64,000 nucleotides of DNA from IMG/VR virus record IMGVR_UViG_2872922060_000001, positions 22,371 through 86,370 of that record; one strand, written 5' to 3'. Source of the DNA: a virus (taxonomy: Duplodnaviria; Caudoviricetes). This document shows, in pieces, positions 739 through 56,738 of the stretch; within the stretch, counting starts at the first letter, position 1; every line of letters begins with the position of its first letter. The position numbers and the translations under genes are program-made. A model generated the notes under the pieces. That model searched no databases, was not told where the DNA came from, and worked only from the letters and a program-made list of their open reading frames with translations.

Positions 739-2024
739 TGGCCGATCCCACCGAGATCGTCGACCTGTTCCGAGGGCCTGGCGGCTGGTCGGAGGGCCTG
801 CGCATGCTGGGGCTCGCCGACATCGGCCTGGAGTGGGACTCGGCTGCCGCCCGGACCGCCCACGCTGCCGGCCATCTGGGCATCCAGTGCGATGTGGCCC
901 AGTACCCCACCCGGCCGTTCGCTGGCCGCATCAAGGGCAAGATCTCGTCGCCCCCCTGCCAGCCCTGGTCCCGCGCCGGAAAGCGTGCCGGACTCGTCGA
1001 CCAGGCCCTCGTGCAGCAGGCTGTTCATGACCTCGCCCACGGCCGCGACACCCGCACCGAACTGCGGGCCGCCTGCAAGGACGACAAGTCGCTGCTCGCT
1101 GCCGAACCTATGCGCTGGATTTGCGACCTACGCCCCGAATGGATCTGTATGGAGCAGGTCCCCGACGTGCTGCCGCTGTGGAAGCAGTACACCCTGTACC
1201 TCCAGCAGTGGGGTTACAGCACGTGGGCGGGGATTCTGAACGCCGCTGACTATGGGGTGCCGCAGACCCGCAAGCGCGCCATCCTCATCGCTTCCCGCGT
1301 CCGGTCGGTCACCGCCCCGGCGCCGACCCACGCGAAGGCGCCCGAGCTCGACCTGTTCGGCGAGTGCCTTCAGCCGTGGGTGTCCATGGCCGAGGCGCTC
1401 GGCTGGACGGCGGGGCTCACGGTGAACACCCGCGGCGAGCGCAAGACCCCGGGGGGCAACGAATTCCCCGCCGACCAGCCGTCATGGGCGCTCACCGAGA
1501 AGACCCGCTCATGGGTGCTGCACACCAACCGTGACCAGCGTGCGGACGGCAGCAGGCAGACCGCCGACCCCTACGCCGGCCCGGCCCCGACCTTCACCGT
1601 TAAGTCCGGCGGCCAGTGGGTGCTGCGCAACGGAAACCAGCCGAACGCGGCGATACGGACCGTTGACGAGCCGGCGCGAACCATGGCGTTCGGTAACAAC
1701 TCGGCCCGCATCGAATGGGTCCAGCAGCGCCCGGCAACCACGGTCTGCGCCACCGACCGCATCTCCCCGCCCGGCCACCGCAACCGCGACGCGGGCGGCG
1801 AATCCCAGTTCGCCAGCCCCGACACCGTCCGCATCACCGTCGCCGAAGCCGCGGTCCTCCAGTCGTTCCGGCCGGACTACCCGTTCCAGGGCACGAAGAC
1901 GGCGAAATTTACCCAAATTGGGAACGCCGTTCCGCCCCTTCTTGCGGCAGCAGTGGTCGGGGCGGCGACCGGCTTGGACTGGCAGGCCGCCGTTCAGGGT
2001 GAGGAGGAGCGCCGTGTCGCTTGA
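738..2024 (+). CDS. C5 cytosine DNA methyltransferase
   Basis: Motif I DLFRGPGG, IV SPPCQ, VI MEQVP, VIII QTRKR, X IGNAVPP; ATG overlaps the upstream stop (TGATG). Confidence 0.92.
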   Translation: MADPTEIVDLFRGPGGWSEGLRMLGLADIGLEWDSAAARTAHAAGHLGIQCDVAQYPTRPFAGRIKGKISSPPCQPWSRAGKRAGLVDQALVQQAVHDLAHGRDTRTELRAACKDDKSLLAAEPMRWICDLRPEWICMEQVPDVLPLWKQYTLYLQQWGYSTWAGILNAADYGVPQTRKRAILIASRVRSVTAPAPTHAKAPELDLFGECLQPWVSMAEALGWTAGLTVNTRGERKTPGGNEFPADQPSWALTEKTRSWVLHTNRDQRADGSRQTADPYAGPAPTFTVKSGGQWVLRNGNQPNAAIRTVDEPARTMAFGNNSARIEWVQQRPATTVCATDRISPPGHRNRDAGGESQFASPDTVRITVAEAAVLQSFRPDYPFQGTKTAKFTQIGNAVPPLLAAAVVGAATGLDWQAAVQGEEERRVA

Positions 2025-2553
2025 ATCTCGCTTCTGGGCGAAGGTCGAAAGGCGTGAGGCAGACGCCTGCTGGGAATGGAAGGGCGCGCGTAACGAGCAC
2101 GGCTATGGCGTAATGCGGCCTGAGGGTCAGCGCTCCGGACCGACCGTGAAAGCCCACCGCGTATCCCTGACGCTGGCCAGCATCGATGTGGCCGGCCGCG
2201 TCGTGCTTCACTCCTGCGACAACCCGCCGTGCGTCAACCCCGCGCACCTGAGGGTTGGCACCCAGCGCGACAACGTGGCCGACATGCACGAGAAGGGCCG
2301 CGGCAACTGCGGCTCTGTCAACGGCCAAGCCAAGCTGACCGAAGCCGATGTCGAACTCATCCGCCTGTGGCTGGCCCTTGGCGTGTCCCAGAAGGAGCTG
2401 AGGATCTTCTACGGCATATCCGCCGGAACGATGTCGAGTCTTGCGAACGGCAAGACGTGGCGGCACGTGACCGTGCCGCCGCTGCTGGCCGCGCACGTCG
2501 TGTCCGCCGCGACCGGCATCCCGCTCCAGCAACAGACCCGTCTGGCTGCCTGA
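2014..2553 (+). CDS. HNH homing endonuclease with C-terminal HTH; tail derived from the methyltransferase end
   Basis: RFWAKV, CWEWKG, AHRVS, VLHSCDNPPCVNPAHL, GTQRDN, KLTE; RBS GAGGAG before GTG. Confidence 0.9.
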   Translation: MSLESRFWAKVERREADACWEWKGARNEHGYGVMRPEGQRSGPTVKAHRVSLTLASIDVAGRVVLHSCDNPPCVNPAHLRVGTQRDNVADMHEKGRGNCGSVNGQAKLTEADVELIRLWLALGVSQKELRIFYGISAGTMSSLANGKTWRHVTVPPLLAAHVVSAATGIPLQQQTRLAA

Positions 2554-2631
2554 GCGCTGGGGCCGTGAAAGCCCGGCTGTACCGCCGGTTCCTGTTGTTG
2601 TTCCTTCCCCCTTGTTGTGGAGGTGAGCGCT

Positions 2632-2919
2632 GTGGCGCGAGCCATGACGACCGCCGCGGTGCTCACCGCGGCGGTCGCCGTTTATGCCCTCGTGGTGCGC
2701 CGTGAACGGCGGCTGCGCCGGGAGGCGGTGTCGCAGCGGCTGATGGCCGGCTGTGTGCAGAGAGACAACACCGCCCTACGGGACCAGTTGGAGGGGTTCC
2801 GGCGGCGCCTGGCGGTGGAGATGGCCCAGCAGTCGGTGGTGGCTGCGGCGGTGGTGGTGTTGGACGACGCCTTGTCGGGGCGGTCGTCTCGTGATGCGTC
2901 TACGGAAGGAGGCCCGTGA
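2632..2919 (+). CDS. Membrane-anchored coiled-coil hypothetical protein
   Basis: GGAGG RBS, N-terminal hydrophobic helix, overlap with next gene. Confidence 0.6.
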   Translation: MARAMTTAAVLTAAVAVYALVVRRERRLRREAVSQRLMAGCVQRDNTALRDQLEGFRRRLAVEMAQQSVVAAAVVVLDDALSGRSSRDASTEGGP

Positions 2920-3743
2920 TGGATTCGATGGCTCTCAGGCAGGCGTGGGAGGAGCACCCCTACTTCCGGTATCGGGGGTGTGCTCCGGATGTGGATGAGC
3001 CGGGCCGGGCGGCGGGGGATTTGTCGCTGTCGTTGGATGCGTGGCATGGGGAGGACCGGGATGGTCCGGAGGAGCCGCGGGAGCGGGAGGCCCGGCAGGC
3101 TGCGGCGGTCGAGGTGTGCTTGTCGTGTCCGGTGATGGTGCAGTGCGATGCGTATGCGTCGTCGGTGGTGGTGGAGGGTGGTCAGGCGCGTCTGGCGGAG
3201 CCGGCGGGGATCTGGGGTGGCCGTACGGCGTTGGAGCGGCATCGGGTGTTCATCCGGCAGCGGCATGAGGTGGCGGTTCCGGCGCCTGTGCGGTTGATGA
3301 GGACGCGGCAGAAGTTGCGGGTGCTGGAGGCGCTGGCCCGGCATGTGGATGCGGAGGCTGTGGCGGCCGCGGCGGGGATGGACGTGCGGACCGCGAACTG
3401 GCAGCGGTCTCGGCTGGTGACGCAGCTGAGTCTGGACAAGCGGACCGCGACGCGTGCCGAGTTGCTGGAGGCGGCGGTGGAGCGGGGCTTGTTGGACGGG
3501 TCGTTGGTGGTGGCGGATGACGGCTCGGTGCCGGCGGTGCCGCCGCCTGCTGCGCCGCCCCGGGTCGCGTCTTCCCTGGGTGTCGTGGAGGGGTCTGGGG
3601 CTGTGGCTCCGGCCGTGTTGAAGGGCCGTGTCCGTCGGCCTCGCCGGGTGCAGGTGATACCCGGCCAGCTGGTTCTGTTCGGCGAGGGTCTCGCCGGTGT
3701 CGTTTCGTTCCCCGTTTCTGAGCCGTTGGAGGCTGCCGCATGA
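2916..3743 (+). CDS. WhiB-family regulator fused to an HTH-like domain
   Basis: C...CLSCPVMVQC, GIWGG turn. Confidence 0.8.
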   Translation: MMDSMALRQAWEEHPYFRYRGCAPDVDEPGRAAGDLSLSLDAWHGEDRDGPEEPREREARQAAAVEVCLSCPVMVQCDAYASSVVVEGGQARLAEPAGIWGGRTALERHRVFIRQRHEVAVPAPVRLMRTRQKLRVLEALARHVDAEAVAAAAGMDVRTANWQRSRLVTQLSLDKRTATRAELLEAAVERGLLDGSLVVADDGSVPAVPPPAAPPRVASSLGVVEGSGAVAPAVLKGRVRRPRRVQVIPGQLVLFGEGLAGVVSFPVSEPLEAAA

Positions 3744-4174
3744 ACCGCCCCCCTGCTACTACCCCCGCTGACGGCGCCGAGGACGGGACGGTCGTCGAGG
3801 ACGCAGCTGTCGAGACGATGATGGCGGATGCGGTGCTCACGGGCCGGAACATGGGTGCGGGCGCGTACATCGCCGGGATTCTGACGGGAGCGCAGGCGGC
3901 GACGGCACCGACCCCGCAGGCGTTGCTGAAGGACATGTGGCCGGGCGTGGATCCGGCGGTGGTGCAGGCGATCTATGAGCGGGGGGTGGAGGTGGGGTGG
4001 CGTGGCCATGCCTTGTATCAGGCGCCGCGTCTGTCTGGGGCTGAGTTGGCGGAGGCTCAGGAGCGGTTGCGGGCGGCGGGGTTCGAGGCGATGCGGGGGT
4101 TGGTGGCCCGGTCGCGTGAGCTGGCGGGGCGGCGGCTGCATCCGGCGGATGGGGAGGCGGCGGGCGGCCACTGA
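3740..4174 (+). CDS. Hypothetical protein
   Basis: ATGA overlap with upstream gene; high GC3. Confidence 0.7.
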   Translation: MNRPPATTPADGAEDGTVVEDAAVETMMADAVLTGRNMGAGAYIAGILTGAQAATAPTPQALLKDMWPGVDPAVVQAIYERGVEVGWRGHALYQAPRLSGAELAEAQERLRAAGFEAMRGLVARSRELAGRRLHPADGEAAGGH

Positions 4175-4412
4175 CGGGTGTTGGTGGTGTGACTTGTTGT
4201 ACAGACGACACGATTTGTGTGGGAGGGGACAGGTGACGAGGTCAACCGGTAGGCTGAGCCTTGCGTCAGACGTGCAGTCAGTTGCGAGGCCGCACGGAGG
4301 TCGCTCAGAAAAGTCGGAAGCCCCCGCTGCCACCGTGGTGGCGGTCCCGGTTTGCGAAGCCGGGACGCGAGGGCTGTCGACACTCACCGCGCTAACGAAT
4401 GAAGGTGCCGAC

Positions 4413-4538
4413 GTGGCAAAGCGTACCCGGGGTACTTCCCCTCATGACAGGTGGCTCCGAAGTTTCTGCGGATCCGGCGTGAAGATCACACCGCCGACGC
4501 AGCCGGGCCCTGTCCCTTCTACTCCCACAGTCGCGTGA
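4413..4538 (+). CDS. Putative leader peptide
   Basis: AAGGTG RBS, follows hairpins, GTGA overlap with next ORF. Confidence 0.35.
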   Translation: MAKRTRGTSPHDRWLRSFCGSGVKITPPTQPGPVPSTPTVA

Positions 4539-4960
4539 CGCGCCGGGCGGCCGCCATCGAGGTGGCCGACTACCACGACGAAGTCGCGCAGTTCGAGCGC
4601 ACGCGCTCTGCCGACTACCACCCCGCGAAGGCCAACGAGCCGCGCCGCGTCCTCACCCTGCGAGGCGGGGTGCTGGCCGGAGCGAACAATGGCGAGGGCC
4701 GCGGCGACTGGGCCCACCGGCCCAACGTCGCCGTCCACACCGCAGTAACCGGATCCGGCTACGCCTACGGCACGTCCGTCGCAGCGTGCAACGGATCCCT
4801 GGAGCTGGGGCACAACGCCGAACTTTCAGCTCTCGTAGTGGTCAGCACCGTGGACGACCGGCTGTTGTGTCAGCGCCCAGCATGCCGCGCCATGCGCGAT
4901 CAAGCTTCTGCGCCTGTTCCGGCGCAGACCCCACCCATTGAGGGAGATCGAGTGACGTAG
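4535..4960 (+). CDS. Hypothetical protein
   Basis: GTGA overlap; start uncertain (4451 is an alternative). Confidence 0.55.
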   Translation: MTRRAAAIEVADYHDEVAQFERTRSADYHPAKANEPRRVLTLRGGVLAGANNGEGRGDWAHRPNVAVHTAVTGSGYAYGTSVAACNGSLELGHNAELSALVVVSTVDDRLLCQRPACRAMRDQASAPVPAQTPPIEGDRVT

Positions 4961-4970
4961 CGAGTAGCTG

Positions 4971-5113
4971 AGGCGGGAGGTCCCTGGGCCCCTTGGCGGG
5001 GGCTCATCCTCTACCGCCTGGCCGCTGGTGTTGGCGCACCGTGCGCGGCCTTCGTTCCACGGCCCGGAGTTGGCGCTCCGAGCTAAGGCCCGTCTCTTCC
5101 GGTTGGCAGCCGG
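4971..5113 (+). promoter_or_regulatory. Structured repA leader with four TTGGC(G/A)-loop hairpins
   Basis: GGGCCCC-TTGGCG-GGGGCTC (4986-5005), GGTG-TTGGCG-CACC (5027-5040), CGGAG-TTGGCG-CTCCG (5065-5080), CCGG-TTGGCAG-CCGG (5099-5113). Confidence 0.7.
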
Positions 5114-5206
5114 CCGAGTCGAGCGAAGTGCTTCTTCCACCGAAGCGAACCACCCACCGAAGCGGGGGCCCTTTTGTGCCTCCGCGTTACCGGAAGCAGG
5201 TTCATA

Positions 5207-6688
5207 GTGCCTCAGCGCACCCCTTCTTGTCAGCTTGGCAACCCGGTAGCGCCCGAAACGCGAGGAATCTCCCCCCGCGCGGGCGACACCCAGCGCCCCC
5301 AGAACACCCCCGACACGCACACCCCCACCCCCACTTTCGAACACCCGACCGATTACAGTGACAGCCACGGTCGTGGCGGCAGCCTCCCGGTGATCGCAGC
5401 TAGCCAGCAATGGCTGCACGCCACGACCGGCCGCATCACCACCTGCCCCCACTCCTGGATGACCGCCGTCCACTGGGTCGACCAGCTCGCGACCAAAGGC
5501 CACTACACGCCCACCCAGAAGCACGGCCCGAAGTGGGGACCCACCACGGTCGCCATCGCGCAGGAGATCGCCGCGCTGAAGGAGTGCCGGCCGTCCGTCG
5601 ACTACCTCGCCCGCAAGCTGAAGGTGTCCGAGCGGACCGTGAAGTACCACCTGGCGATGCTCCGCGAGACCGGGCTGCTGGTGTACCGCACCAAGGGCAC
5701 CCGCCTCCGCGGCGAAGGCAACCGGGCGTCCGTCTTCGAGCGGACCATCCCCGCCGTGTTCGACGAGGACATGGGCATCCGCACGGTCGGGGAGGGTGCA
5801 ACGCGCCGGCCGGTCGGCGCCGCACCGGAGTCCCGCACCTTGCTGGGCAAGCTCGCGAAGAAGGCCGCCCGGAAGGTCCGCCGCACCCGTCGCCGCGCCC
5901 CTGCTTCGCGCGGGCAGCGTTGCACCCTAATGCAGGGGGGTACTACTGGCACTTCTACTGCGGCTGGTACTCACTCTCCCTCTGAGGCAGAGCTCGCAAG
6001 CGGGAAAGCCAAGTCCCCCACCCCGAAGTCGTCCAAGCGCGGCACCCGCACCCTGAACAAGGTCGGTCGCCGTTACCAGCTCGCCCGCCAGCTCATCGCC
6101 CAGGTGCCCTGGCTCCGCGGCGCCTCCGTCGCCCGCATCGCGTGGATCGTCCGCCACGTCGCCGACGCCGGCTGGACCGCCCTCGAAGTCCAGGCCGCCG
6201 CCGAACGCCTCGTCTGCGACAAGGAGCCGCGCCGCCCGTCCGCCGTCCTCGCGTACCGGCTCGCGTCCTGCCACCTGCTGTACACCACCCCCGAGCGGCG
6301 CCGGGTCCTGGTGGAGGACTGGCAGGACTCCCGCCGCGCCCAGCAGACCCGCCACGACGAGCACGCCTTCCAAGACCTCGGCACCGGCCCCCGCAGCGTC
6401 GCCGCCCGCCGCGCCGTGGACGAGGCGTTCGCCGCGATCCAGGCCCGCCTCGCCCCCGCCGTGGAGGAACCCGCCGACCAGGCACCGCTGATGCTCGAGG
6501 ACCTCACCAAGGACGAGATCGTCGCCCTGCGCCTGGACGCCATGCGGGACCCGGCGCTGATCCTGTCCGCGCTCGAGCTGCTCGGCGAACGCGACACCCG
6601 CCGCCTGTACACCAACCGCCTCGTCGACCAGACCCTCGCCCTCGAGACCATCCACGCCCGCCGCGACACCCTCGCCCCCGCCTTCTGA
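5207..6688 (+). CDS. Plasmid replication initiator (winged HTH)
   Basis: wHTH PSVDYLARKLKVSERTVKYHL..LRETGLL; lies near parAB and DciA, with a structured leader; start uncertain. Confidence 0.7.
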   Translation: MPQRTPSCQLGNPVAPETRGISPRAGDTQRPQNTPDTHTPTPTFEHPTDYSDSHGRGGSLPVIAASQQWLHATTGRITTCPHSWMTAVHWVDQLATKGHYTPTQKHGPKWGPTTVAIAQEIAALKECRPSVDYLARKLKVSERTVKYHLAMLRETGLLVYRTKGTRLRGEGNRASVFERTIPAVFDEDMGIRTVGEGATRRPVGAAPESRTLLGKLAKKAARKVRRTRRRAPASRGQRCTLMQGGTTGTSTAAGTHSPSEAELASGKAKSPTPKSSKRGTRTLNKVGRRYQLARQLIAQVPWLRGASVARIAWIVRHVADAGWTALEVQAAAERLVCDKEPRRPSAVLAYRLASCHLLYTTPERRRVLVEDWQDSRRAQQTRHDEHAFQDLGTGPRSVAARRAVDEAFAAIQARLAPAVEEPADQAPLMLEDLTKDEIVALRLDAMRDPALILSALELLGERDTRRLYTNRLVDQTLALETIHARRDTLAPAF

Positions 6689-7031: not shown

Positions 7032-7831
7032 CGGACACCCCGCAACTGTCCGGGAGGGACCTCGCCCGGCAGGCCCTCGCCGCCTACAAGGCCACCGCCC
7101 GCACTCAGCCCAGCACCCCCGCCAAGTCGGTCCGCAAGCGGACCGTCCGCCGCGGCCCCGGCCGCGACCCCGTCACCCTCGCCGACGCCATCACCGCCCT
7201 CGGAGCCGACCTGCCCCTCGACGCGGGCATCGCCGGCGGCAATCTCCTCGACCAGTGGCCCGCCCTCTGCCCCCAGTACGCCGACCGCGTCCATCCCGTC
7301 GCCTACGACGAACAGCGTGGCCGCCTCGACCTCCGCCCCGGCAGCCACGCCTACGCCGCCCAGCTCCAACTCCTCGGCGGACAACTCGCCAAACAGATCA
7401 ACGACAAACTCGGCCGCACCGTCGTCCGCAGCATCCGCGTCCTGCCCGTCGGCAACGTGCCCCAACACGACGCGTATACCGCGGTATACGCCGACCCCTC
7501 CGAGACGACCCAGCCGGAGGCGCCAGTGAAAACCCGGGAGACCGCCTCCGCCGGCTACCGGGCCGCCCTCGCCGCCGCACTCGCCCACAAACCGCCACGC
7601 GAACCGCAGAACCCGTACATCGCCGAAGCGATCCGCGCCCAGGACGCCGCCCTCCGCGCCAAGCGCCTGCCCGAGTCCGAAGACCGCGACGCCTACTGGG
7701 CACAACGAGACGCCGCGGAGAAAACCGGGCCCGAACCCGGCAGCATCGACGCGTCCATCGCCGCAGCGATCGCCCGCAAACGGCAAGAGCAGACCGGCAG
7801 CGAGCCCCGCCGGCTCTTCGGCGCCGCGTAG
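7028..7831 (+). CDS. DciA/DUF721-family protein with C-terminal extension
   Basis: LLDQWPAL..YADRVHPV.Y...GRL.L...SHAYAAQLQLL..QL..QIN..LG..VVRSIRV pattern. Confidence 0.75.
   Translation: MTDTPQLSGRDLARQALAAYKATARTQPSTPAKSVRKRTVRRGPGRDPVTLADAITALGADLPLDAGIAGGNLLDQWPALCPQYADRVHPVAYDEQRGRLDLRPGSHAYAAQLQLLGGQLAKQINDKLGRTVVRSIRVLPVGNVPQHDAYTAVYADPSETTQPEAPVKTRETASAGYRAALAAALAHKPPREPQNPYIAEAIRAQDAALRAKRLPESEDRDAYWAQRDAAEKTGPEPGSIDASIAAAIARKRQEQTGSEPRRLFGAA
7474..7489. repeat. parS candidate 1, GTATACCGCGGTATAC
   Basis: Perfect 16-bp palindrome, four copies around parAB. Confidence 0.8.
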
Positions 7832-8776: not shown

Positions 8777-9073
8777 ATGACCACACCCACCACCGGCTAC
8801 GAGGCCGAACCGTCCGACGTTGCCGCCGAGGTCGCCTCCCACCTGGACGACATCACCGACCCGCTGGAGCGCTACCACCGGGCCACCGCCGCGCAGGCCC
8901 ACCACCAGGCGGTCGCCTCCAAGTTGCAGCAGGAGCGGGACAAGGCGCTCGCCCAGCTGAATGCGGACGGCGCCTCCTACGAGAAGCTTACGAGCCTGGT
9001 GCCGGGCATGACCCGCTCCGGGATCCAGAAAGCGGTGGAGCGCGGCCGGCGTCTGTCTCATGACCCCAGCTGA
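8777..9073 (+). CDS. Small HTH DNA-binding protein
   Basis: GASYEKLTSLVPGMTRSGIQKAV; RBS present. Confidence 0.7.
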   Translation: MTTPTTGYEAEPSDVAAEVASHLDDITDPLERYHRATAAQAHHQAVASKLQQERDKALAQLNADGASYEKLTSLVPGMTRSGIQKAVERGRRLSHDPS

Positions 9074-9698
9074 GCGGGCCGAGACGAAGCAGCTGATTGT
9101 CCACGCTCTCGCCCACGGCTCCCAGGTGCGTCAAGCCGTAGCGGCACAGGGCATCGGCTATCCGACATTCGCCCGGTGGCGGCGCTCCGACCCCGTCTTC
9201 GACGCCCAGGTCAGTGAGGCGCTACGGAACAGCGGGCGCGCCCAACATGCCGTCCGACCAACGTCCCGGTACCTGACGTCGCCGGTCGCCCGGGCAGGTA
9301 AGGCCCGGGTACTGGAGGCGCTGGTCTGGGGGGCGACTATGAACGAGGCAGCCGATGCGGCCGACGTGTCCGAGTCGACGGTCAGGGCCTGGCGGCGCGA
9401 GGACCCGGACTTCGACCGAGCTGTGTTCCGTCTATGGCGGGCTGGCCCTGAGGCAAATCGCCCTCTCCCTCTCGCCCCTGATCCTGCCTGCGCGGCGGAC
9501 GGCTGCTCCGAGACCGATCTGCACGCGCGGGGCCTGTGTGTCCGGCACTACCACCAGCAGCGGCGCACAGGACGGCTACGCCCGGCTGGCTGGGTATACG
9601 GGAGGCAGGACTGCTCGGTCGTGGGGTGCGATGAGCCGCACCGGGCACAGGGGTTTTGCGCCGCGCATTACGAGACGACGTACCGTCGCGCAACTTAA
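9060..9698 (+). CDS. Tandem HTH protein with two C-terminal Cys3His zinc fingers
   Basis: Two T...WRR.DP.FD repeats; two C....C......G.C..HY motifs. Confidence 0.7.
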   Translation: MTPAERAETKQLIVHALAHGSQVRQAVAAQGIGYPTFARWRRSDPVFDAQVSEALRNSGRAQHAVRPTSRYLTSPVARAGKARVLEALVWGATMNEAADAADVSESTVRAWRREDPDFDRAVFRLWRAGPEANRPLPLAPDPACAADGCSETDLHARGLCVRHYHQQRRTGRLRPAGWVYGRQDCSVVGCDEPHRAQGFCAAHYETTYRRAT

Positions 9699-9766: not shown

Positions 9767-9919
9767 ATGCCCCACACCCCCGACTGGCACGCCCTCGAGG
9801 AAACCAACGAACGCGTCTGGCTCGACCAGTGGGCCCGCGGCGCCATCGACCCCCACAGCCTCCGCCCCCACCGGCCGGCGCCCGCTCCCGAGCCCGCCCT
9901 TACCGGGAGCACCCGATGA
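9767..9919 (+). CDS. Small hypothetical protein
   Basis: GGAG RBS, ATGA overlap with next ORF. Confidence 0.5.
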   Translation: MPHTPDWHALEETNERVWLDQWARGAIDPHSLRPHRPAPAPEPALTGSTR

Positions 9920-10146
9920 CCACCGCCCCTGCTCGACGCATCCCCGGCCAGCCCGTCAACGTCCACGCCCCCGCGCCCGGAGTCGGCCGGGAGACCAGCC
10001 GCGTCCCCTGCCGTCTCCCCGGCCAGGCTCGCCGAGAGTGGCCCCGCCCACCGCTCATCCACGACCACGCCCGGTTGTTCGTCGAGCCCACCTACCTCGA
10101 TGGCCAGCCCTACAGCGCGGACGATAAGGATGACACCGGGGAGTAG
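9916..10146 (+). CDS. Small hypothetical protein
   Basis: ATGA overlap, RBS. Confidence 0.5.
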   Translation: MTTAPARRIPGQPVNVHAPAPGVGRETSRVPCRLPGQARREWPRPPLIHDHARLFVEPTYLDGQPYSADDKDDTGE

Positions 10147-10188
10147 CAGGTGACCAGCCTGACGTCTGTCTGAGCCGAATCATGCGGA

Positions 10189-10212
10189 CGGCGTATACCG
10201 CGGTATACGCCG
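10189..10212. repeat. parS candidate 2 (24-bp palindrome, core 10193-10208)
   Basis: CGGCGTATACCGCGGTATACGCCG. Confidence 0.85.
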
Positions 10213-10259
10213 AGGGTCTCACCCCCGCCCCCCGCCGCCGGGAACCAGCGCCGCTGAAG

Positions 10260-10275
10260 GTATACCGCGGTATAC
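10260..10275. repeat. parS candidate 3
   Basis: GTATACCGCGGTATAC upstream of parA. Confidence 0.85.
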
Positions 10276-10388
10276 GCCCGCTGCGGTGAACCAGCAGCCC
10301 ACTCCCCGACCCCGTGTGGTCGATCTGAGAAGCTATGCCTCGTCCGAGTACCGAGCCCGCCTCGGGAAGCACACGGAAACGGAGCAGC

Positions 10389-11054
10389 ATGCCCTCCTCA
10401 GTTCTGGTCATCTCCATCGACCCACAGGGATCCACCCTCTGGTGGGCCGACCGCATCGGTGACGACCTCCCCTTCGACTTCGCCACCGCCCACGACGACC
10501 CCGACAGCCTCAGCAACCTGATCTCCCTCAAGGAATCGGGCGCGAAGGTCCACGTCGTCGCCAACCAGAAGGGCGGGGTCGGCAAGACGACGATAGTGAT
10601 GAACCTCGCCGCTACCGCCCAGGACGTCCTCAAGGCAGGCAACCAGGTACGGCACGTGTTCATCGACACCCCCGGCTCCATCGAGGACGAACGCCTCCTG
10701 ACCGCAGCCCTCGAAGTCGCCGACGACGTGATCGTGCCCCTCCCCCCGGACCCGCTCGCGTTCGACCCGACCACCCGCACCATCGAGAAGGTCATCAAGC
10801 CCCGCGGCCTCCCCTTCAAGGTCATCATCAACAACTGGGACGCCCGCGACGGCAAGACCGACATGCTCGACACCCGAGCATTCGTCACAGCGCAGGGCTG
10901 GTCCCTCGCAGAGACCGGGATCCGCCGGTACCGCATCCACACCCGCGCCCCCGCCGAAGGGAAGCTCGTCACCCACTACCCCGACAGCGGTACCACCCTC
11001 AGAGCCCGCCAGGACTTCCTCAAGCTCGCCCTCGAGCTGGGCTACGGGGGCTGA
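10389..11054 (+). CDS. parA: ParA partition ATPase with permuted motif order
   Basis: NQKGGVGKTT (deviant Walker A), IDPQGS (A'), FIDTPG (Walker B); adjacent to parB. Confidence 0.9.
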   Translation: MPSSVLVISIDPQGSTLWWADRIGDDLPFDFATAHDDPDSLSNLISLKESGAKVHVVANQKGGVGKTTIVMNLAATAQDVLKAGNQVRHVFIDTPGSIEDERLLTAALEVADDVIVPLPPDPLAFDPTTRTIEKVIKPRGLPFKVIINNWDARDGKTDMLDTRAFVTAQGWSLAETGIRRYRIHTRAPAEGKLVTHYPDSGTTLRARQDFLKLALELGYGG

Positions 11055-11056
11055 CC

Positions 11057-12082
11057 GTGGCAGGAAAGCGCGTATCCCTGGCCTCCCTCGCCGGGGCCCC
11101 TGTCGAGACCGTGCCCGGCGCCTCACGCCCCGACCTGATCCACGTCCCCCCGAGCACCGTCGCCCCTACCCCCCTCAACCCGCGGCGCGCCTTCGACGAG
11201 ACCGAGCTGGCCGAACTCGGCGAAGACATGCGAGGAGGACAGCTCCAGCCGTGCGTGGCCGTGAACAAGGCCGCCTACCTGAAGCTGTACCCCGAGCACG
11301 CCGACCAGCTGCCCGCTGGTTGCCGGTACGTCATGGCCGCCGGCGAACGCCGCTGGCGCGCCGCCGTCAAGGTCGGCCTCGAGCACCTCGACCTGCTGCT
11401 GCGGCACGACCTCACCGAATCCCGCGTCCGGTTCCTCGCCGCGGTGTTGTCGGAGAACGTGCAGCGCGCCAACTTCAATCCCATCGAGGAAGCCGACGGC
11501 CTGCGTGCCATGCTCGACCTCCACGACGGCAACCAAGCCGCGGCAGCGCGAGCCATGGGCAAGTCGAAGCAGTGGTTCAACCAGCGCATCGGCCTGCTGC
11601 GGCTGACGGATCAGATGGTGCAGCTGGTCCTCGAAGGGAAACTGACTGCGTTCCGCGAGATGCGCCGGTACGCGGCTATGCCGCCGGAGGAGCAGTATGC
11701 AGCGTGGCAGGCGGACCAAGAGCAGCCGCGTCCGCCCAAGCAGCCATCCGTCGAGTTGAACCCGGGGAAGATTGCTGGCACCGTTCAGCAGCAGCAGGCG
11801 TATACCGCGGTATACCCGCCCGCCGACACAGCCGCCGCAGCCTCACCGGCACCGGTCCCAAGCCAGCCAGAGGCCACAGCAGCAGCGGAACGCATCCCCG
11901 AATCACGGACCGCCATTCAGGCGGACACGCCAGCGGCCCAGCCATCAGCGAGACGATTCCCCTACGACGATGGCCTGTCCGCGGGACAACTCCTGATCCA
12001 TAAGATGCCGCCGGCGGAGCTGGAGAAGGTGACCGACATGCTCATTGCTCACCGGGAGAAGCAGACCGCTGGCGTCAGCTGA
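11057..12082 (+). CDS. parB: ParB CTPase-type partition protein
   Basis: NPRR.F, AGERRWRA, ENVQR..NPIEEA, HTH. Confidence 0.92.
   Translation: MAGKRVSLASLAGAPVETVPGASRPDLIHVPPSTVAPTPLNPRRAFDETELAELGEDMRGGQLQPCVAVNKAAYLKLYPEHADQLPAGCRYVMAAGERRWRAAVKVGLEHLDLLLRHDLTESRVRFLAAVLSENVQRANFNPIEEADGLRAMLDLHDGNQAAAARAMGKSKQWFNQRIGLLRLTDQMVQLVLEGKLTAFREMRRYAAMPPEEQYAAWQADQEQPRPPKQPSVELNPGKIAGTVQQQQAYTAVYPPADTAAAASPAPVPSQPEATAAAERIPESRTAIQADTPAAQPSARRFPYDDGLSAGQLLIHKMPPAELEKVTDMLIAHREKQTAGVS
11800..11815. repeat. parS candidate 4, inside parB
   Basis: GTATACCGCGGTATAC. Confidence 0.8.
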
Positions 12083-12095
12083 ACCTGCCGCGTCT

Positions 12096-12129
12096 GGCCC
12101 CGCCGTCGTTGTCTGACGATGGCGGGGCC
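12096..12129 (+). terminator. Intrinsic terminator-like hairpin after parB
   Basis: GGCCCCGCCGTCGT...ACGATGGCGGGGCC. Confidence 0.6.
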
Positions 12130-12705
12130 CCTTCGTGCGTGAGGCACTGTCGCGGTGCCCAGCAGCGGCCCCCGCGCCTGACCGAACGCAACACGGCTCT
12201 ACCCCGTGACGAGATCCACGGATAGACTCGCGTCATCTGACGGGCATGCGCTCGTGAGGTCTCAAGCCCCCACACCAGGGAACCGGGCGTTGTCGGCAAC
12301 ACCGCCCCACTCCTGATGCTGGGGGCGTCCGCATTTCCAGGGCACACACCACCGCTAGACACCAGTGAGTAACGGATCGCGCCATCTCCGTCACGGAATC
12401 AGTCACGGGCTGGTGAAAAGTCGACCCGACGTTACCCACCCAAGGAAAACGATGCCACAGTAGGCATCCCCTCAATGTGGACTGGCAGCCACCCAGGGGG
12501 CGCAGGCCCGTCACCCGACCACTGGCGGGCAGGCGGACCTTCCCACATCTGCCGGAGGAGCGGAGACGCCCCCATGCCCGCAGCGGAGCCGGCCGACCCC
12601 ACACCGCCCACGAACCCCCTCAACGCGATCGAGGGCGCGGCCGTGATCCCCATCCATGCGCGCCGCACGGGACGCGGCGCCCCCAATCACAGGGGGTGGA
12701 ACCCC

Positions 12706-52063: not shown

Positions 52064-52597
52064 ATGGGATGGTCAAAACTCAAGCAGGACGAAGTCGCCG
52101 TCCGCCGCACCGCGCTGCTGAAGCTGCGCCGCGAAGGCGTCCGCTACGACGACCCGCGCATCGAAGCCCTCGGCTACGCCAGCCCCAACGCCGCCCGCCG
52201 CGACCTCACCCGCGCCCTCGAAGCCCACCGCGACGAAGAAGCCGCCGAAGTCAGCATCTACCGCCAGCAGGAGAACGAACGTCTCGACGCCCTCCTCGAA
52301 GCCGCCTGGCCCCGCGCGACACAGCCGTCCCCGGTCTTCGACAAGGAGGGCAACATCGTCGGCGAGGAACTCGACATGCGGGCCATCGACACTGTCCTGC
52401 GGCTCATGGACCGCCGTGCCAAGCTCAACGGCCTCGACATGCCGGCCAAGACCGAAGTCACCGGCGCCAACGGCGGACCCCTCCAGATGAGCCAGGCCGG
52501 TGACGCCGAACTCGAAGCCATCATGAACGCCGGGCCGGACCCCGCCCCGAACCTTGAGGGCGCCCCCGGCGAACAGCCCGGCGACGGCAGTGGCTGA
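52064..52597 (+). CDS. Terminase small subunit
   Basis: HTH, RRAKLNGLD.P.K.EVTG.NGGP; precedes TerL. Confidence 0.85.
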   Translation: MGWSKLKQDEVAVRRTALLKLRREGVRYDDPRIEALGYASPNAARRDLTRALEAHRDEEAAEVSIYRQQENERLDALLEAAWPRATQPSPVFDKEGNIVGEELDMRAIDTVLRLMDRRAKLNGLDMPAKTEVTGANGGPLQMSQAGDAELEAIMNAGPDPAPNLEGAPGEQPGDGSG

Positions 52598-54116
52598 CGG
52601 CATCCTCGCCCGCTACCGGGCCCTACCCGCCGCCGAGCGCCGCAACATCATCCGTCACGCCTCCGACGACCTCCGCGCCCAGCTCGCCACGCTCGAAGCC
52701 GAAATGGCGATGGACCGATCCCCAGGAGCGCTCGCCGCCGTCCTTACTCACGGGAAGGAAATGCAGGCCCGGCACCTGGACATCATCGACCGCATCTACC
52801 AGCGCATCGCCGCCGGGGAACGCATCCGCGCCATGGTCACCATGCCCCCGCGCGCGGGAAAGTCCCGCCGCACCTCCCGCTGGGGCCCCACTTGGTACCT
52901 GCGCCGTCAGCCCGACCACCGGTTCATGCTCGCCTCCTACGCCGCCCACCTAGCCGACGACCACGGCCGGTGGATACGCAACACGATCACCGAGCACGCC
53001 CCCACGCTCGGCATTCGCCTCAAATACGGGTCACAGGCAGCCAACCGGTTCGACATCGACGGCCACGAGGGCGGCATGGTCACCGCAGGTGTTGGAGGCC
53101 CGCTGACCGGTCGCGGCGCGCACGTTGCCTGCGTGGACGACCCATTCAAAGGCTCCGAGGATGCCGGCAGCCCCACACAACGCGAGCGGGTCTGGGACTG
53201 GTGGCAGTCAGTTCTTCTCACCCGGCTCGAACCTCAAGGGTCCGTCCTCCTCGTGAACACCCGCTGGGACGACGACGACCTCTCTGGCCGACTCCTCAGG
53301 GAAGAACCCGACGACTGGATCGTCATCGACCTCCCCGCCATCGCTCTGTCAGCCGACGACCCCCTTGGACGGAAGCCAGGAGAAGCCCTCTGGCCCGAGC
53401 GGTACAACGCAGACGACTACGCGCGCATCCGGAAATCCGTAGGTGAACGTGTCTGGTGGGCTCTCTACCAGCAGCAGCCCAGACCTCTCGAAGGCGGCGT
53501 CTGGCAGTGGGCTTGGATCACAGGAAACCGCATCAGCCCCGCTGCATTCCGCGGTGTCAACCTCACACGGACCCTGATCGCCATTGACCCCTCCGGTGGG
53601 GCGGGCACAGCCAACGACGAAACCGGCATCATGGCGGCAGCCAGAGACGAGGCAGGAGAGCTGTACCTCTTCGCTGATCACTCTGGCCGGCACGGCGCCA
53701 ACAGCTGGGGACGCGAGGCATGCCTGCTGGCACTCGACAGCGATGCAGACGCCTTCGTTGTTGAGACGAACTTCGGTGGCGACATGACCAGGCAAGTACT
53801 CACCCAGGCGTGGCAGGAGCTGCAACGCGCAGGCAGCATCACAAACCAGCCCATGCCACGGATCATCGAAGTGAACGCCAAGCAGGGCAAACGGCTGCGG
53901 GCAGAGCCGATCGCTCAGCTCTATGAGCAGGGCAGAGTCCACCATGTGGGTGAGTTCGACACTCTGGAACGCCAGATGGTCACTTGGGTGCCAGGCATGG
54001 ACTCCCCAGACCGCATGGATGCTGCTGTGCACGCGCTGACAGAGCTGGCAGACCCGACACAGGCCGGCTTGGGCAGCCAGCAGTACACCGACCAGCGCCT
54101 CAGAGGACGACGCTGA
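52590..54116 (+). CDS. Terminase large subunit
   Basis: MPPRAGKS, TGRGAH...DDP, NTRW..DD, AIDP, VETN.GG, DRMDA. Confidence 0.95.
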   Translation: MADGILARYRALPAAERRNIIRHASDDLRAQLATLEAEMAMDRSPGALAAVLTHGKEMQARHLDIIDRIYQRIAAGERIRAMVTMPPRAGKSRRTSRWGPTWYLRRQPDHRFMLASYAAHLADDHGRWIRNTITEHAPTLGIRLKYGSQAANRFDIDGHEGGMVTAGVGGPLTGRGAHVACVDDPFKGSEDAGSPTQRERVWDWWQSVLLTRLEPQGSVLLVNTRWDDDDLSGRLLREEPDDWIVIDLPAIALSADDPLGRKPGEALWPERYNADDYARIRKSVGERVWWALYQQQPRPLEGGVWQWAWITGNRISPAAFRGVNLTRTLIAIDPSGGAGTANDETGIMAAARDEAGELYLFADHSGRHGANSWGREACLLALDSDADAFVVETNFGGDMTRQVLTQAWQELQRAGSITNQPMPRIIEVNAKQGKRLRAEPIAQLYEQGRVHHVGEFDTLERQMVTWVPGMDSPDRMDAAVHALTELADPTQAGLGSQQYTDQRLRGRR

Positions 54117-54823: not shown

Positions 54824-54845
54824 GAGCGGAGTGGAGAGGGATGCC

Positions 54846-56738
54846 GTGGGCTGGCTGTCCGGCGCCAAGCAAGTCGTCATCGACGCCTGGTCGTGGCTGA
54901 ACTACAAGCCGATCTACGCCAACGACCGCGGCATCCCCTACCGGCGGGCCTTCCCCGAAGCCAAGGCCACCTGGGTCCCCGCCGCGGACGAGCGGCGCCT
55001 CGCCGCGTACAAGCTCCTCGCCGCCTACGACCACAACCAGGCCGCCGAGCTCGCCGAGGTCCGCGACGGCCCCGAAGCCCGCGAGAGGCGTGAGTTCGGC
55101 GACCCCAGCATGTTCGTCGACACGATCCTCGCCCACGTCCTCGGCCGTGAGCAGCACATCACCGTCCCCGGCGCCGAGAACACCGGCACCACCGGCAGTC
55201 AGGGGGAGTCGGCGGCCGCGATGGCGGAGCGGGTGCAGACCCTGCTGCGGGACTGGGCCGACACCGAGCTGCTGCCCATGCGGATCCAGCAGAGCGAACG
55301 TAAGGCAGTCCTCCTGGGTGACGGCGTGTACCGGCTGGCTTGGGACCCCACCAAGCGCCGCGTCACCGTCCGCTCCGTCGACCCGGGCTTCTACTTCCCC
55401 GTCCTGGAGGAGGACGACGGCGGCGAGTTCCCGAGCCGTGTCCACTTCGCGTGGGAGCTCGCCGAGGACACCCGCCGCGGCCTGAAGGCCCGCATCCGCC
55501 GCATCACCTACGAACTCGCCCCCATCGGCGCCCCCACCTCACCCAGCACCGACACCGACGGCCGGCCCGTGCGCGTGCCGGTCACCGTCGAAGGGCCCGA
55601 AGGCGAGCCGATACCCGTCATCGGCCAGGGCGACACCGTCGACCCGGACACCGGCACGATCACCCGCCTCTACCCGTGGTCCGACACCCCCAGCCCGGTC
55701 ACCTGCTACCTCACCGACGCCACCTGGAACCTCGACGACCTCAAGGGGGACTACGACGTCGACTCCCTGCCGATGGCGAAGGCGTCCTACGCGGTCCGCT
55801 CCGACGGTGAGGTACTGGACCGGCTCGACCTGCTGATCGACTTCCTGCCGGTGATCCACGTCCCGAACACCGTCCCGGACGCCGAGGAGCACTGGGGCCA
55901 GTCCTCCCTGGCGAAGGTGCTGCAAGTCTTCGACGAGCTCGCATCATCGGACACGGACTCCTCCCGCGCCTCCGCCACCACCGGCCTGCCCATGCTCGCC
56001 GTGTCCGGCGTCACCGACTCCCGCTCCCAGATGGCCGTCGAACCCGGCGCCGTGTGGAAGCTCGGCGACACCGGCAAGCTCACCGCGGTCGACACCTCCC
56101 CGGCGCTGCGGGAACTCCGCGAGCACGTCCACGACCTCGCCGACCGCGCGGCGACCGTCGCCCGTCTCCCCGCCGTCGCGCTCGGCACCCTCGACCCGAC
56201 GAAGGCACCCTCCGGATACGCCCTCGAAGTGTCCTTGGGCCCGCTGGACTCCCTCATCGGCAGCATGCGCCTGGCCCGCGACCACAAGTACGCCCTGCTG
56301 CTGAAGATGGTGCAGCGACTCCACCTGGCCGGGCAGCACCCCGACTGGGTCGGCATCACCGTCCAGCCCGCCAAGCTCGTCTTCGGCCCGTACAAGCCGA
56401 CCGACCGCAACGGCATCCTCACCATGGTCACCCTCGGCGTGGAGAAGGGCGTCCTGTCCAAGGAGACCGCCATCCGCATGCTCATCGAGGCCGGCTTCCC
56501 CATCGAGGACGCCGAGGACGAACTCCGCCGGATCGACGCCCGCAGCTTCGATGACGCCCGCGCACTGGCCGACGCGCTCGGCAACGTCGAGGAGGTCGCC
56601 GCGTTCCTCGGCCGGAAAGCCCCCGACGAACCCGAGACGCCTCCTGTGCGACTCCCGCCCACCGAGGACGACGATCCCGAGGACGACGAAGAAGCGCCCG
56701 GACAGGAGCCGCGGGGGAGCAGGGGGAACACGGCGTGA
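54846..56738 (+). CDS. Portal protein
   Basis: LGDGV..L.WD, LPVIHVPN....WGQS, PSG.AL; position after terminase. Confidence 0.88.
   Translation: MGWLSGAKQVVIDAWSWLNYKPIYANDRGIPYRRAFPEAKATWVPAADERRLAAYKLLAAYDHNQAAELAEVRDGPEARERREFGDPSMFVDTILAHVLGREQHITVPGAENTGTTGSQGESAAAMAERVQTLLRDWADTELLPMRIQQSERKAVLLGDGVYRLAWDPTKRRVTVRSVDPGFYFPVLEEDDGGEFPSRVHFAWELAEDTRRGLKARIRRITYELAPIGAPTSPSTDTDGRPVRVPVTVEGPEGEPIPVIGQGDTVDPDTGTITRLYPWSDTPSPVTCYLTDATWNLDDLKGDYDVDSLPMAKASYAVRSDGEVLDRLDLLIDFLPVIHVPNTVPDAEEHWGQSSLAKVLQVFDELASSDTDSSRASATTGLPMLAVSGVTDSRSQMAVEPGAVWKLGDTGKLTAVDTSPALRELREHVHDLADRAATVARLPAVALGTLDPTKAPSGYALEVSLGPLDSLIGSMRLARDHKYALLLKMVQRLHLAGQHPDWVGITVQPAKLVFGPYKPTDRNGILTMVTLGVEKGVLSKETAIRMLIEAGFPIEDAEDELRRIDARSFDDARALADALGNVEEVAAFLGRKAPDEPETPPVRLPPTEDDDPEDDEEAPGQEPRGSRGNTA

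Follow-up and report, generated by a model that had tools for sequence, protein, structure and literature searches.

A predicted ParA-type partition ATPase with its P-loop unit in mid-chain, encoded by a pZL12-like Streptomyces phage-plasmid

The stretch of DNA analysed here (hereafter the window, 64,000 bp in its full length) comprises bases 22371-86370 of an 86,370-bp contig, IMG/VR record IMGVR_UViG_2872922060_000001, which is part of a three-contig genome of 8.12 Mb. It carries a parA gene at 10389..11054 (+), coding for a protein of 221 aa plus stop (P0003) whose conserved segments stand in a permuted order. The gene was delimited by its open frame and translation, by the start common to its homologues and by Pfam matches. 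The open frame as a whole spans 10335-11054 (+), and the homologues start at the position of the Met at 10389, making no use of the ATG at 10335 that would lengthen the product; a GGAG lies 7-10 nt 5′ of this start. The next in-frame ATG, GTG or TTG is found only at 10596, 3′ of the P-loop codons, and therefore a P-loop-first product cannot arise from a standard start. Translation beginning only at the P-loop strand is excluded by the lack of a suitable in-frame start and by the low ratio of nonsynonymous to synonymous substitution (dN/dS, 0.19) in the segment that precedes the P-loop.

The protein can be divided into three modules. Module B (aa 1-51; 10389..10541, +) was recognized by profile match, by identity to relatives and by secondary structure (DSSP), and contains the A′/switch-I strand VLVISIDPQ, the WW helix, the PFDF strand and a second helix; the codon of Asp11 is at 10419-10421. 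In canonical ParA proteins this segment comes after the P-loop helix. Here it is followed by module A (aa 52-86; 10542..10646, +), the relocated unit of about 35 aa, with strand beta1, the deviant Walker A motif KGGVGKTT (10569-10592) and helix alpha1, assigned by profile match, invariance and model superposition. Module C (aa 87-221; 10647..11051, +), assigned by profile match and invariance, consists of the Walker B strand HVFIDTPG, with the Asp93 codon at 10665-10667, and the remaining ParA core including the basic motif RRYxxHTRA. Written out, the chain reads MPSS plus VLVISIDPQGSTLWWADRIGDDLPFDF for module B, AKVHVVANQKGGVGKTT plus a helix for module A, and HVFIDTPGS plus the ParA core for module C. 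The preliminary description of this DNA had listed the motifs at 10389-11054 in the order A′, P-loop, Walker B, all of them intact, in frame and next to an intact parB. The open frame, the translation and the profile matches confirm this order, which is VLVISIDPQGS..WW (aa 5-19), KVHVVANQKGGVGKTT (aa 53-68) and HVFIDTPG (aa 89-96), and the domain matches of the ParB protein bear out the rest.

The parB gene (11057..12082, +; 341 aa) begins with a GTG 2 nt after the parA stop. Its product matches ParB_N (E 5.5e-10) and HTH_ParB (E 2.3e-9) in Pfam, scores 77 bits against TIGR00180 (cut-off 58) and bears the N-terminal motif AGKRVSLASLAG. The 16-bp palindrome GTATACCGCGGTATAC is present in four exact copies in the window, against an expectation of 0. 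Two of these parS-like copies are upstream of parA, at 10193..10208 (inside a 20-bp palindrome, 10191-10210) and at 10260..10275, the third lies inside the 3′ half of parB (11800..11815), and the fourth (7474..7489) is downstream of an open reading frame (ORF; 5174-6688, +) weakly similar to replication initiators (E ~5e-6). The adjoining parB with its ParB_N and helix-turn-helix domains, together with the repeated palindromes, is the arrangement of a type I parABS system.

When the three modules were compared separately with the NCBIfam profile NF041546 (ParA_partition), aa 1-51 matched profile positions 30-60 (E 0.016), aa 52-86 matched positions 3-26 (E 1.4e-7) and aa 87-221 matched positions 79-192 (E 2.9e-8). 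Thus the protein matches the profile out of order, in three stretches; matches out of order, two in number, had been expected of an alignment to ParA/CbiA profiles. Against Pfam it exceeds the gathering thresholds of AAA_31 (PF13614; 37.0 bits versus 27) and of CbiA (PF01656; 30.9 versus 25.4 bits). The hallmarks of the superfamily are present: the deviant Walker A motif KGGxGK[ST] with its signature lysine, in NQKGGVGKTT (aa 59-68); the A′ aspartate, D11 in SIDPQ, and the Walker B aspartate, D93 in FIDTPG; and the ParA/MinD (SIMIBI) fold in the modelled modules A and C. Only the linear order departs from the usual Walker A, A′, Walker B, being A′, Walker A, Walker B. Its homology and its fold make the protein a member of the ParA/MinD superfamily, nearest to the small ParF-like ParA proteins.

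The permuted order is widely shared. A word-indexed homologue search matched 933 proteins at E <= 0.001, and the best 120 were examined. They are 58-100% identical to the window protein, mostly 218-224 aa long and in many cases encoded on contigs of ~82-97 kb. Most come from Streptomyces, and others from Kitasatospora, Actinomadura, Actinocorallia, Actinoallomurus and Yinghuangia; one is labelled Leifsonia. The search for homologues with the same order was fully successful: all 120 are B-A-C, both by motif positions and by three module hidden Markov models (HMMs) built from alignment A2, and so are 58 loci at the DNA level, found in genomes, viral contigs and metagenomes. Among the best 120 homologues the A′ motif is DPQ or DAQ in 119 and DSQ in one. 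Invariant residues are D11, Q13, W19 and P28-F29 in module B, the Walker A residues K61, G62, G63, G65, K66, T67 and T68 in module A, and D93, R179, R180, Y181, H184 and R186 in module C.

In the window's family, 401 genomes were sampled; matches at E <= 1e-20 occur in 77 of them, with 31 full-length places. The 30 of these that were retrieved are all B-A-C (the 31st, G272, was left out). There are 59 other places in the family genomes, and the 20 next-best of these that were retrieved are all canonical, A-B-C. IMG/VR yielded 13 loci on viral contigs of 61-93 kb (9 B-A-C, 4 A-B-C), and the JGI metagenomes 80 loci (56 A-B-C, 17 B-A-C, 7 cut at contig ends). In the IMG/VR contigs L142-L145 (61-92 kb), the sibling ParA is of canonical A-B-C order instead of B-A-C. 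In a scan of genome contigs with alignment A2, the generic pattern QKGGVGKT overwhelmed the result: of 80 loci only one (L002) is full length, with 60% identity, and the remaining 79 are short or of low identity. The parB gene is directly downstream of parA in 56 of the 58 B-A-C loci, the other two having no room for it. It also follows parA in 70 of 80 A-B-C loci, where seven have no room and three have room but no match. In both kinds of loci the N-terminus of ParB carries a motif of the (K/R)RxSLASL type.

Selection has acted on the whole chain. Over 496 pairs from 32 B-A-C genes, the median pairwise dN/dS is 0.19 for module B, 0.30 for module A and 0.20 for module C, as simple Nei-Gojobori estimates in a GC-rich genome. 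Every module is under purifying selection, with no less constraint on the N-terminal segment than on the remainder.

When representatives clustered at 50% identity were searched exhaustively, 505 matched at E <= 0.001, and the best 150 of these were classified by module HMMs. The canonical order A-B-C accounts for 92 of these 150, and in another 15, scored as A-C, module B is too diverged for the HMM used. Three are B-A-C and three are B-A fragments. Four are B-C-A, and one is a C-A fragment whose full-length cluster mate (P0273) is B-C-A. One more, A-B-B-C, has an insertion inside B, and the last 31 are other fragments. The B-C-A chain starts at the A′ strand, reaches the usual C-terminus (...LALELGYG) and, after a linker of about 10 residues, continues with RIHVIANQKGGVGKTT plus a helix. 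Consequently, B-C-A is a true circular permutation of A-B-C, while B-A-C is not a rotation of it at all. The B-C-A proteins (P0124, P0125, P0142, P0187 and P0273/P0158) come from metagenome or Logan assemblies only and form five 90%-identity clusters, each present on one to three contigs, the longest of 48 and 59 kb. None of the 93 loci found with P0124 (13 in IMG/VR and 80 on metagenome contigs) is B-C-A, and P0125 retrieved no locus from IMG/VR.

The modules of the differently ordered proteins are clearly homologous. The identities to the window protein are 55% (module B), 62% (A) and 54% (C) in the A-B-C protein P0126, and 52%, 76% and 63%, respectively, in the B-C-A protein P0124. Across the eight relatives compared, the matching modules are 41-76% identical to those of the window protein, so that the out-of-order pattern is no chance effect.

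A phylogenetic tree was built from module C alone, with 109 rows (90 A-B-C, 14 B-A-C and 5 B-C-A). Rows had to cover at least 105 model positions and fragments were omitted; 12 of the 120 proteins of the first search were included. All 14 B-A-C and all 5 B-C-A proteins fall into one clade of 50 rows, together with 31 A-B-C proteins (support 99 in the Shimodaira-Hasegawa-like approximate likelihood ratio test, SH-aLRT). The remaining 59 rows are all A-B-C, which indicates that A-B-C is the ancestral order. The best trees require 6-7 changes of order, with poor resolution inside the 50-row clade. In approximately unbiased (AU) tests on 58 rows (the 50-row clade and 8 selected outgroup rows), a single origin was not rejected for B-A-C (p 0.47) nor for B-C-A (p 0.29).

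The structure of the window protein was predicted with template-free AlphaFold2 from an alignment of 120 rows. The model has a mean predicted local distance difference test score (pLDDT) of 93.2 and a predicted template modelling score (pTM) of 0.91. Residues 1-50 score 89-95; in DSSP they contain two strands (5-9 and 30-33) and two helices (15-26 and 38-49). Beyond residue 50 the chain forms a strand at 53-57, the P-loop, a helix spanning 66-81 and, at 89-93, the Walker B strand. Failure of the N-terminal segment to pack into the core, which would have spoken against a permutation, is thus contradicted by the prediction, with its two confident strands and high pTM. The top matches of the model in Foldseek are ParF (TP228 ParA), Synechocystis ParA (3cwq), Soj, MipZ and MinD. 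In VIA-align, residues 52-219 superpose on residues 1-203 of ParF (4dzz_A) with Z 18.4 and a root-mean-square deviation (rmsd) of 1.9 Å over 158 aligned residues, and modules A and C on Soj, MinD and NifH-like proteins with Z 14-16. Module B is skipped in the alignment with ParF because the aligner is sequential. The model of the B-C-A protein P0124, made from a 45-row alignment of unaltered natural sequences, has pLDDT 93.4 and pTM 0.91, and its C-terminal strand, P-loop and helix score 83-93. Its residues 4-191 (modules B and C) superpose on ParF residues 28-206 (Z 18.0, rmsd 2.6 Å, 174 aligned). The models thus show modules A and C in a predicted canonical arrangement in B-A-C, and module B in its predicted canonical slot relative to C in the B-C-A sibling.

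Comparison with known systems may help to place these proteins. ParF of TP228 (PDB 4dzz, 4e03, 4e07, 4e09 and 5u1g) and Synechocystis ParA (3cwq) are small ParA proteins of the same fold and size, without an N-terminal DNA-binding domain, and share with the window protein the deviant Walker A, the A′ Asp and the Walker B Asp; 3cwq is the best sequence match among solved structures (E 1.1e-10). In contrast to ParF, however, the chain runs B-A-C instead of A-B-C, and a sequential alignment, with 23-24% identity, is possible only for A and C (model residues 52-219). Its partner also differs, being a helix-turn-helix ParB with a ParB_N domain, unlike the ParG that accompanies ParF. ParG is a ribbon-helix-helix protein. 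Within the same clade, the A-B-C proteins P0126, P0127 and P0128 have modules 41-67% identical to those of the window protein but carry the P-loop unit at the N-terminus, whereas the window protein has it in mid-chain. The B-C-A siblings of this clade, with modules 43-76% identical, have it at the C-terminus. To our knowledge, the P-loop unit is N-terminal in all other ParA/MinD proteins.

The circularly permuted GTPases (YjeQ/RsgA, YlqF/YawG and YqeH) are natural permutations of P-loop NTPases in which the three-dimensional active site is kept. They belong to the TRAFAC class, while the window protein is a SIMIBI ParA/MinD protein. Moreover, their permutations are circular and fixed in old families. 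In the ParA proteins a segment has been swapped, and three orders co-exist at 50-60% identity. Non-circular permutations reportedly occur in other folds, for example in an HK97-like capsid protein.

Among the closest described counterparts is pZL12.17c, the ParA encoded by the plasmid-phage pZL12 of Streptomyces (GenBank GQ919031), which is 61.5% identical over the full length and has the same B-A-C order, although the record labels it simply ParA. The ParA proteins of similar plasmids such as pSLE1 are further counterparts. The pZL12 genome has the same parA-parB layout on a circular phage-plasmid of ~90 kb, with no difference in kind from the window locus. Judging from the sequence, the parA gene studied here belongs to a probable parS-parA-parB locus on a Streptomyces phage-plasmid of 86 kb that resembles pZL12.

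Similar palindromes are found at other B-A-C loci (L001, L002 and L084-L112), ~130-270 bp upstream and ~1.3-1.9 kb downstream of the parA start, and thus in the places they occupy here, before parA and within the 3′ half of parB. Their sequence varies by lineage, being GTATACCGCGGTATAC here, GGTTTACCGCGGTAAACC in pZL12 and ATTTTCCGCGGAAAAT, CTTTACGGCCGTAAAG or GTTTTCCATGGAAAAC elsewhere. Lineage-specific palindromes at fixed positions are as expected of parS sites that would set partition specificity. The divergence of the palindromes looks as if centromere specificity (incompatibility groups) had diversified. Between the two upstream palindromes (10211-10260), the close relative present in three air-metagenome runs, all from a single study, has 274 other letters where the window has 48 bases, which shows that the parA promoter/parS region is variable. 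A scan of 9900-12400 for sigma-70 promoters and terminators gave no sites, a result that is uninformative for a high-GC actinomycete.

Elsewhere in the window there are genes for a DNA methyltransferase (555-2024, +), a large terminase (52554-54116, +) and a portal protein (54831-56738, +). As in pZL12, genes for plasmid maintenance stand beside genes for phage head packaging on this replicon. An ORF at 9060-9698 (+), immediately upstream of the par locus, matches in PHROG both an HNH endonuclease (aa 143-209) and a terminase small subunit (aa 8-122), about 43 kb from the large terminase. In other genomes, some B-A-C parA genes are located hundreds of kb into large contigs (G161:C2:653784, G133:C2:684929, G022:C2:1426394 and G182:C1:333924). 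This indicates that the permuted ParA is not confined to phage-plasmids of ~90 kb; outside them it may serve large plasmids or integrated copies.

Taken together, the protein is likely a working, topologically rewired partition ATPase of the 86-kb pZL12-like phage-plasmid, to judge from sequence conservation and the predicted structures. The preliminary description had read it as a P-loop ATPase fold permuted naturally and in a non-circular way, and this reading is supported by the out-of-order profile matches, the homologues and the loci. An artefact of assembly or sequencing in the window is the least probable of the alternatives, and its probability is close to negligible: all of the best 120 clusters of homologous proteins have the same order, as do 58 loci in independent assemblies. 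In addition, metagenome contigs ~95-97% identical cover 10260-10588 and 10564-11250 and thereby bridge both junctions, B/A at 10541/10542 and A/C at 10646/10647, so that an assembly rearrangement is excluded. This junction support comes from metagenome contigs of a close relative. A search of read runs found none with at least half of the sampled words; the best shares, 0.30-0.32, were from metagenomes, with no RNA run among them. The contigs of the close relative all break within the P-loop coding stretch 10557-10593 and nowhere else across parA. The summed contig depth there is 1,400-5,200, against 6-13 beside it, because many metagenome ParA genes share these words. This stretch is an assembly hazard for such parA genes. 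It is also very improbable, if a little less so, that aa 1-51 are an unrelated extension on a ParA that has lost its A′ segment, with no permutation involved. Although the segment alone matches the ParA profile weakly (E 0.016), its match at positions 30-60 fills exactly the gap between the other two matches, it is 41-59% identical, column for column, to module B of canonical relatives in the same clade, and the homologous segment of the B-C-A protein occupies ParF residues 28 onward in the model.

Two other explanations accept the permutation but give it a different consequence, and both are improbable to a similar degree. The protein might be a degenerate or regulatory-only relative of ParA, for example a repressor or adaptor of the par operon, that does not hydrolyse ATP as its active site was disturbed by the permutation. 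The low ParA_partition score (72 bits versus an equivalog cut-off of 180) would fit such a protein. However, the nucleotide-binding and catalytic residues are invariant in the best 120 homologues, each module is under purifying selection, the A plus C core superposes on ParF at 1.9 Å, and ParB retains the canonical N-terminal motif that stimulates ParA. Slightly less improbable is a three-dimensional domain swap, in which module B would fill the vacant beta2/switch-I slot of a partner molecule, giving an obligate intertwined dimer with altered regulation. The short linker between B and A is compatible with this, as is the fact that residues 1-51 remain unplaced in the sequential structural alignment. 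Nevertheless, the monomer is predicted as a single compact domain with residues 1-50 at pLDDT 89-95 and a pTM of 0.91, and in the model of the B-C-A sibling, superposed on ParF 28-206, the same module folds in cis.

Some results weigh against a working, permuted ParA, or against parts of its proposed history. The whole-protein score for NF041546 is 72.3 bits, in three separate stretches, far from the equivalog cut-off of 180 bits. It is low because a colinear model cannot add up out-of-order pieces, and it is therefore what is expected of a permuted chain, yet formally the equivalog test is failed. The canonical placement of module B in the B-A-C model is inferred from model confidence, homology and the B-C-A sibling. 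The number of order changes lies between 2 and ~7, given 6-7 in the best tree and AU tests that allow one origin for each order. Finally, no second A or B module, as an intermediate or scar of duplication, was found in 270 proteins or in six-frame module-HMM scans of 52 loci. A protein of the type B-A-B-C would have had a length covered by the homologue search.

If the protein is indeed a rewired partition ATPase, its chain would pass from the A′/switch-I strand and helical hairpin of module B through beta1, the P-loop and alpha1 of module A to the Walker B strand and core of module C. Each beta-alpha unit of the parallel sheet probably enters and exits on the face away from the nucleotide, so that short linkers could reconnect the units while the catalytic residues stay unmoved. 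Helix alpha1 would lead into the adjacent Walker B strand in B-A-C, rather than crossing to beta2 as in A-B-C, and beta1 would be fed from the end of module B (in B-A-C) or from the C-terminal helix (in B-C-A). Based on established knowledge of ParA/MinD proteins, the function would be that of a canonical ParA. ATP binding would close a sandwich dimer through the signature lysine K61, and the dimer would bind nucleoid DNA. ParB bound to the 16-bp parS palindromes would trigger hydrolysis via its N-terminal (K/R)RxSLASL peptide, and the resulting ParA gradient would position and segregate the copies of the prophage-plasmid.

As to the origin, the starting point was probably a canonical A-B-C ancestor in the one clade that also yielded the circular permutants (B-C-A). 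The B-A-C order could have arisen by a partial tandem duplication to A-B-A-B-C, followed by loss of the first A (giving B-A-B-C, which still contains A-B-C) and then of the inner B. Similarly, the source of B-C-A could have been a tandem fusion of whole genes that was then trimmed at either end. This duplication-and-loss scenario is a conjecture. The best tree allows repeated independent relocations (6-7 changes).

Most natural permutations of domains are of the circular kind and of long standing. It is rare for close relatives to show three connectivities of a single P-loop ATPase, a non-circular one among them, with none of the catalytic residues lost. No description of a permuted ParA was found in full-text literature searches, most subscription journals being outside their reach. 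Because colinear profiles under-score B-A-C ParA proteins, the partition genes of a common Streptomyces phage-plasmid family may be mis-scored or mis-clustered.

We lean, with modest confidence, towards a wider reading, in which the beta1/P-loop/alpha1 unit is a relocatable cassette that, in a single young ParA clade, has been fixed at the start, in the middle and at the end of the chain. The middle version would be a natural non-circular segment swap, spread through the phage-plasmids and large plasmids of Streptomycetaceae under purifying selection. Were this true, it would be the first case of its kind in the ParA/MinD class, to the extent that the literature searches can tell. The permuted series also bears on the idea, reportedly put forward in PMC7758060, that the P-loop NTPase fold grew from a beta, P-loop, alpha fragment. 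In a sense, the clade is a natural experiment on how far the connectivity of a P-loop NTPase can change without loss of function. Provided that the cassette reading is true, its members would form a natural series in which to test the effect of connectivity on folding, dimerisation and ParB-stimulated hydrolysis.

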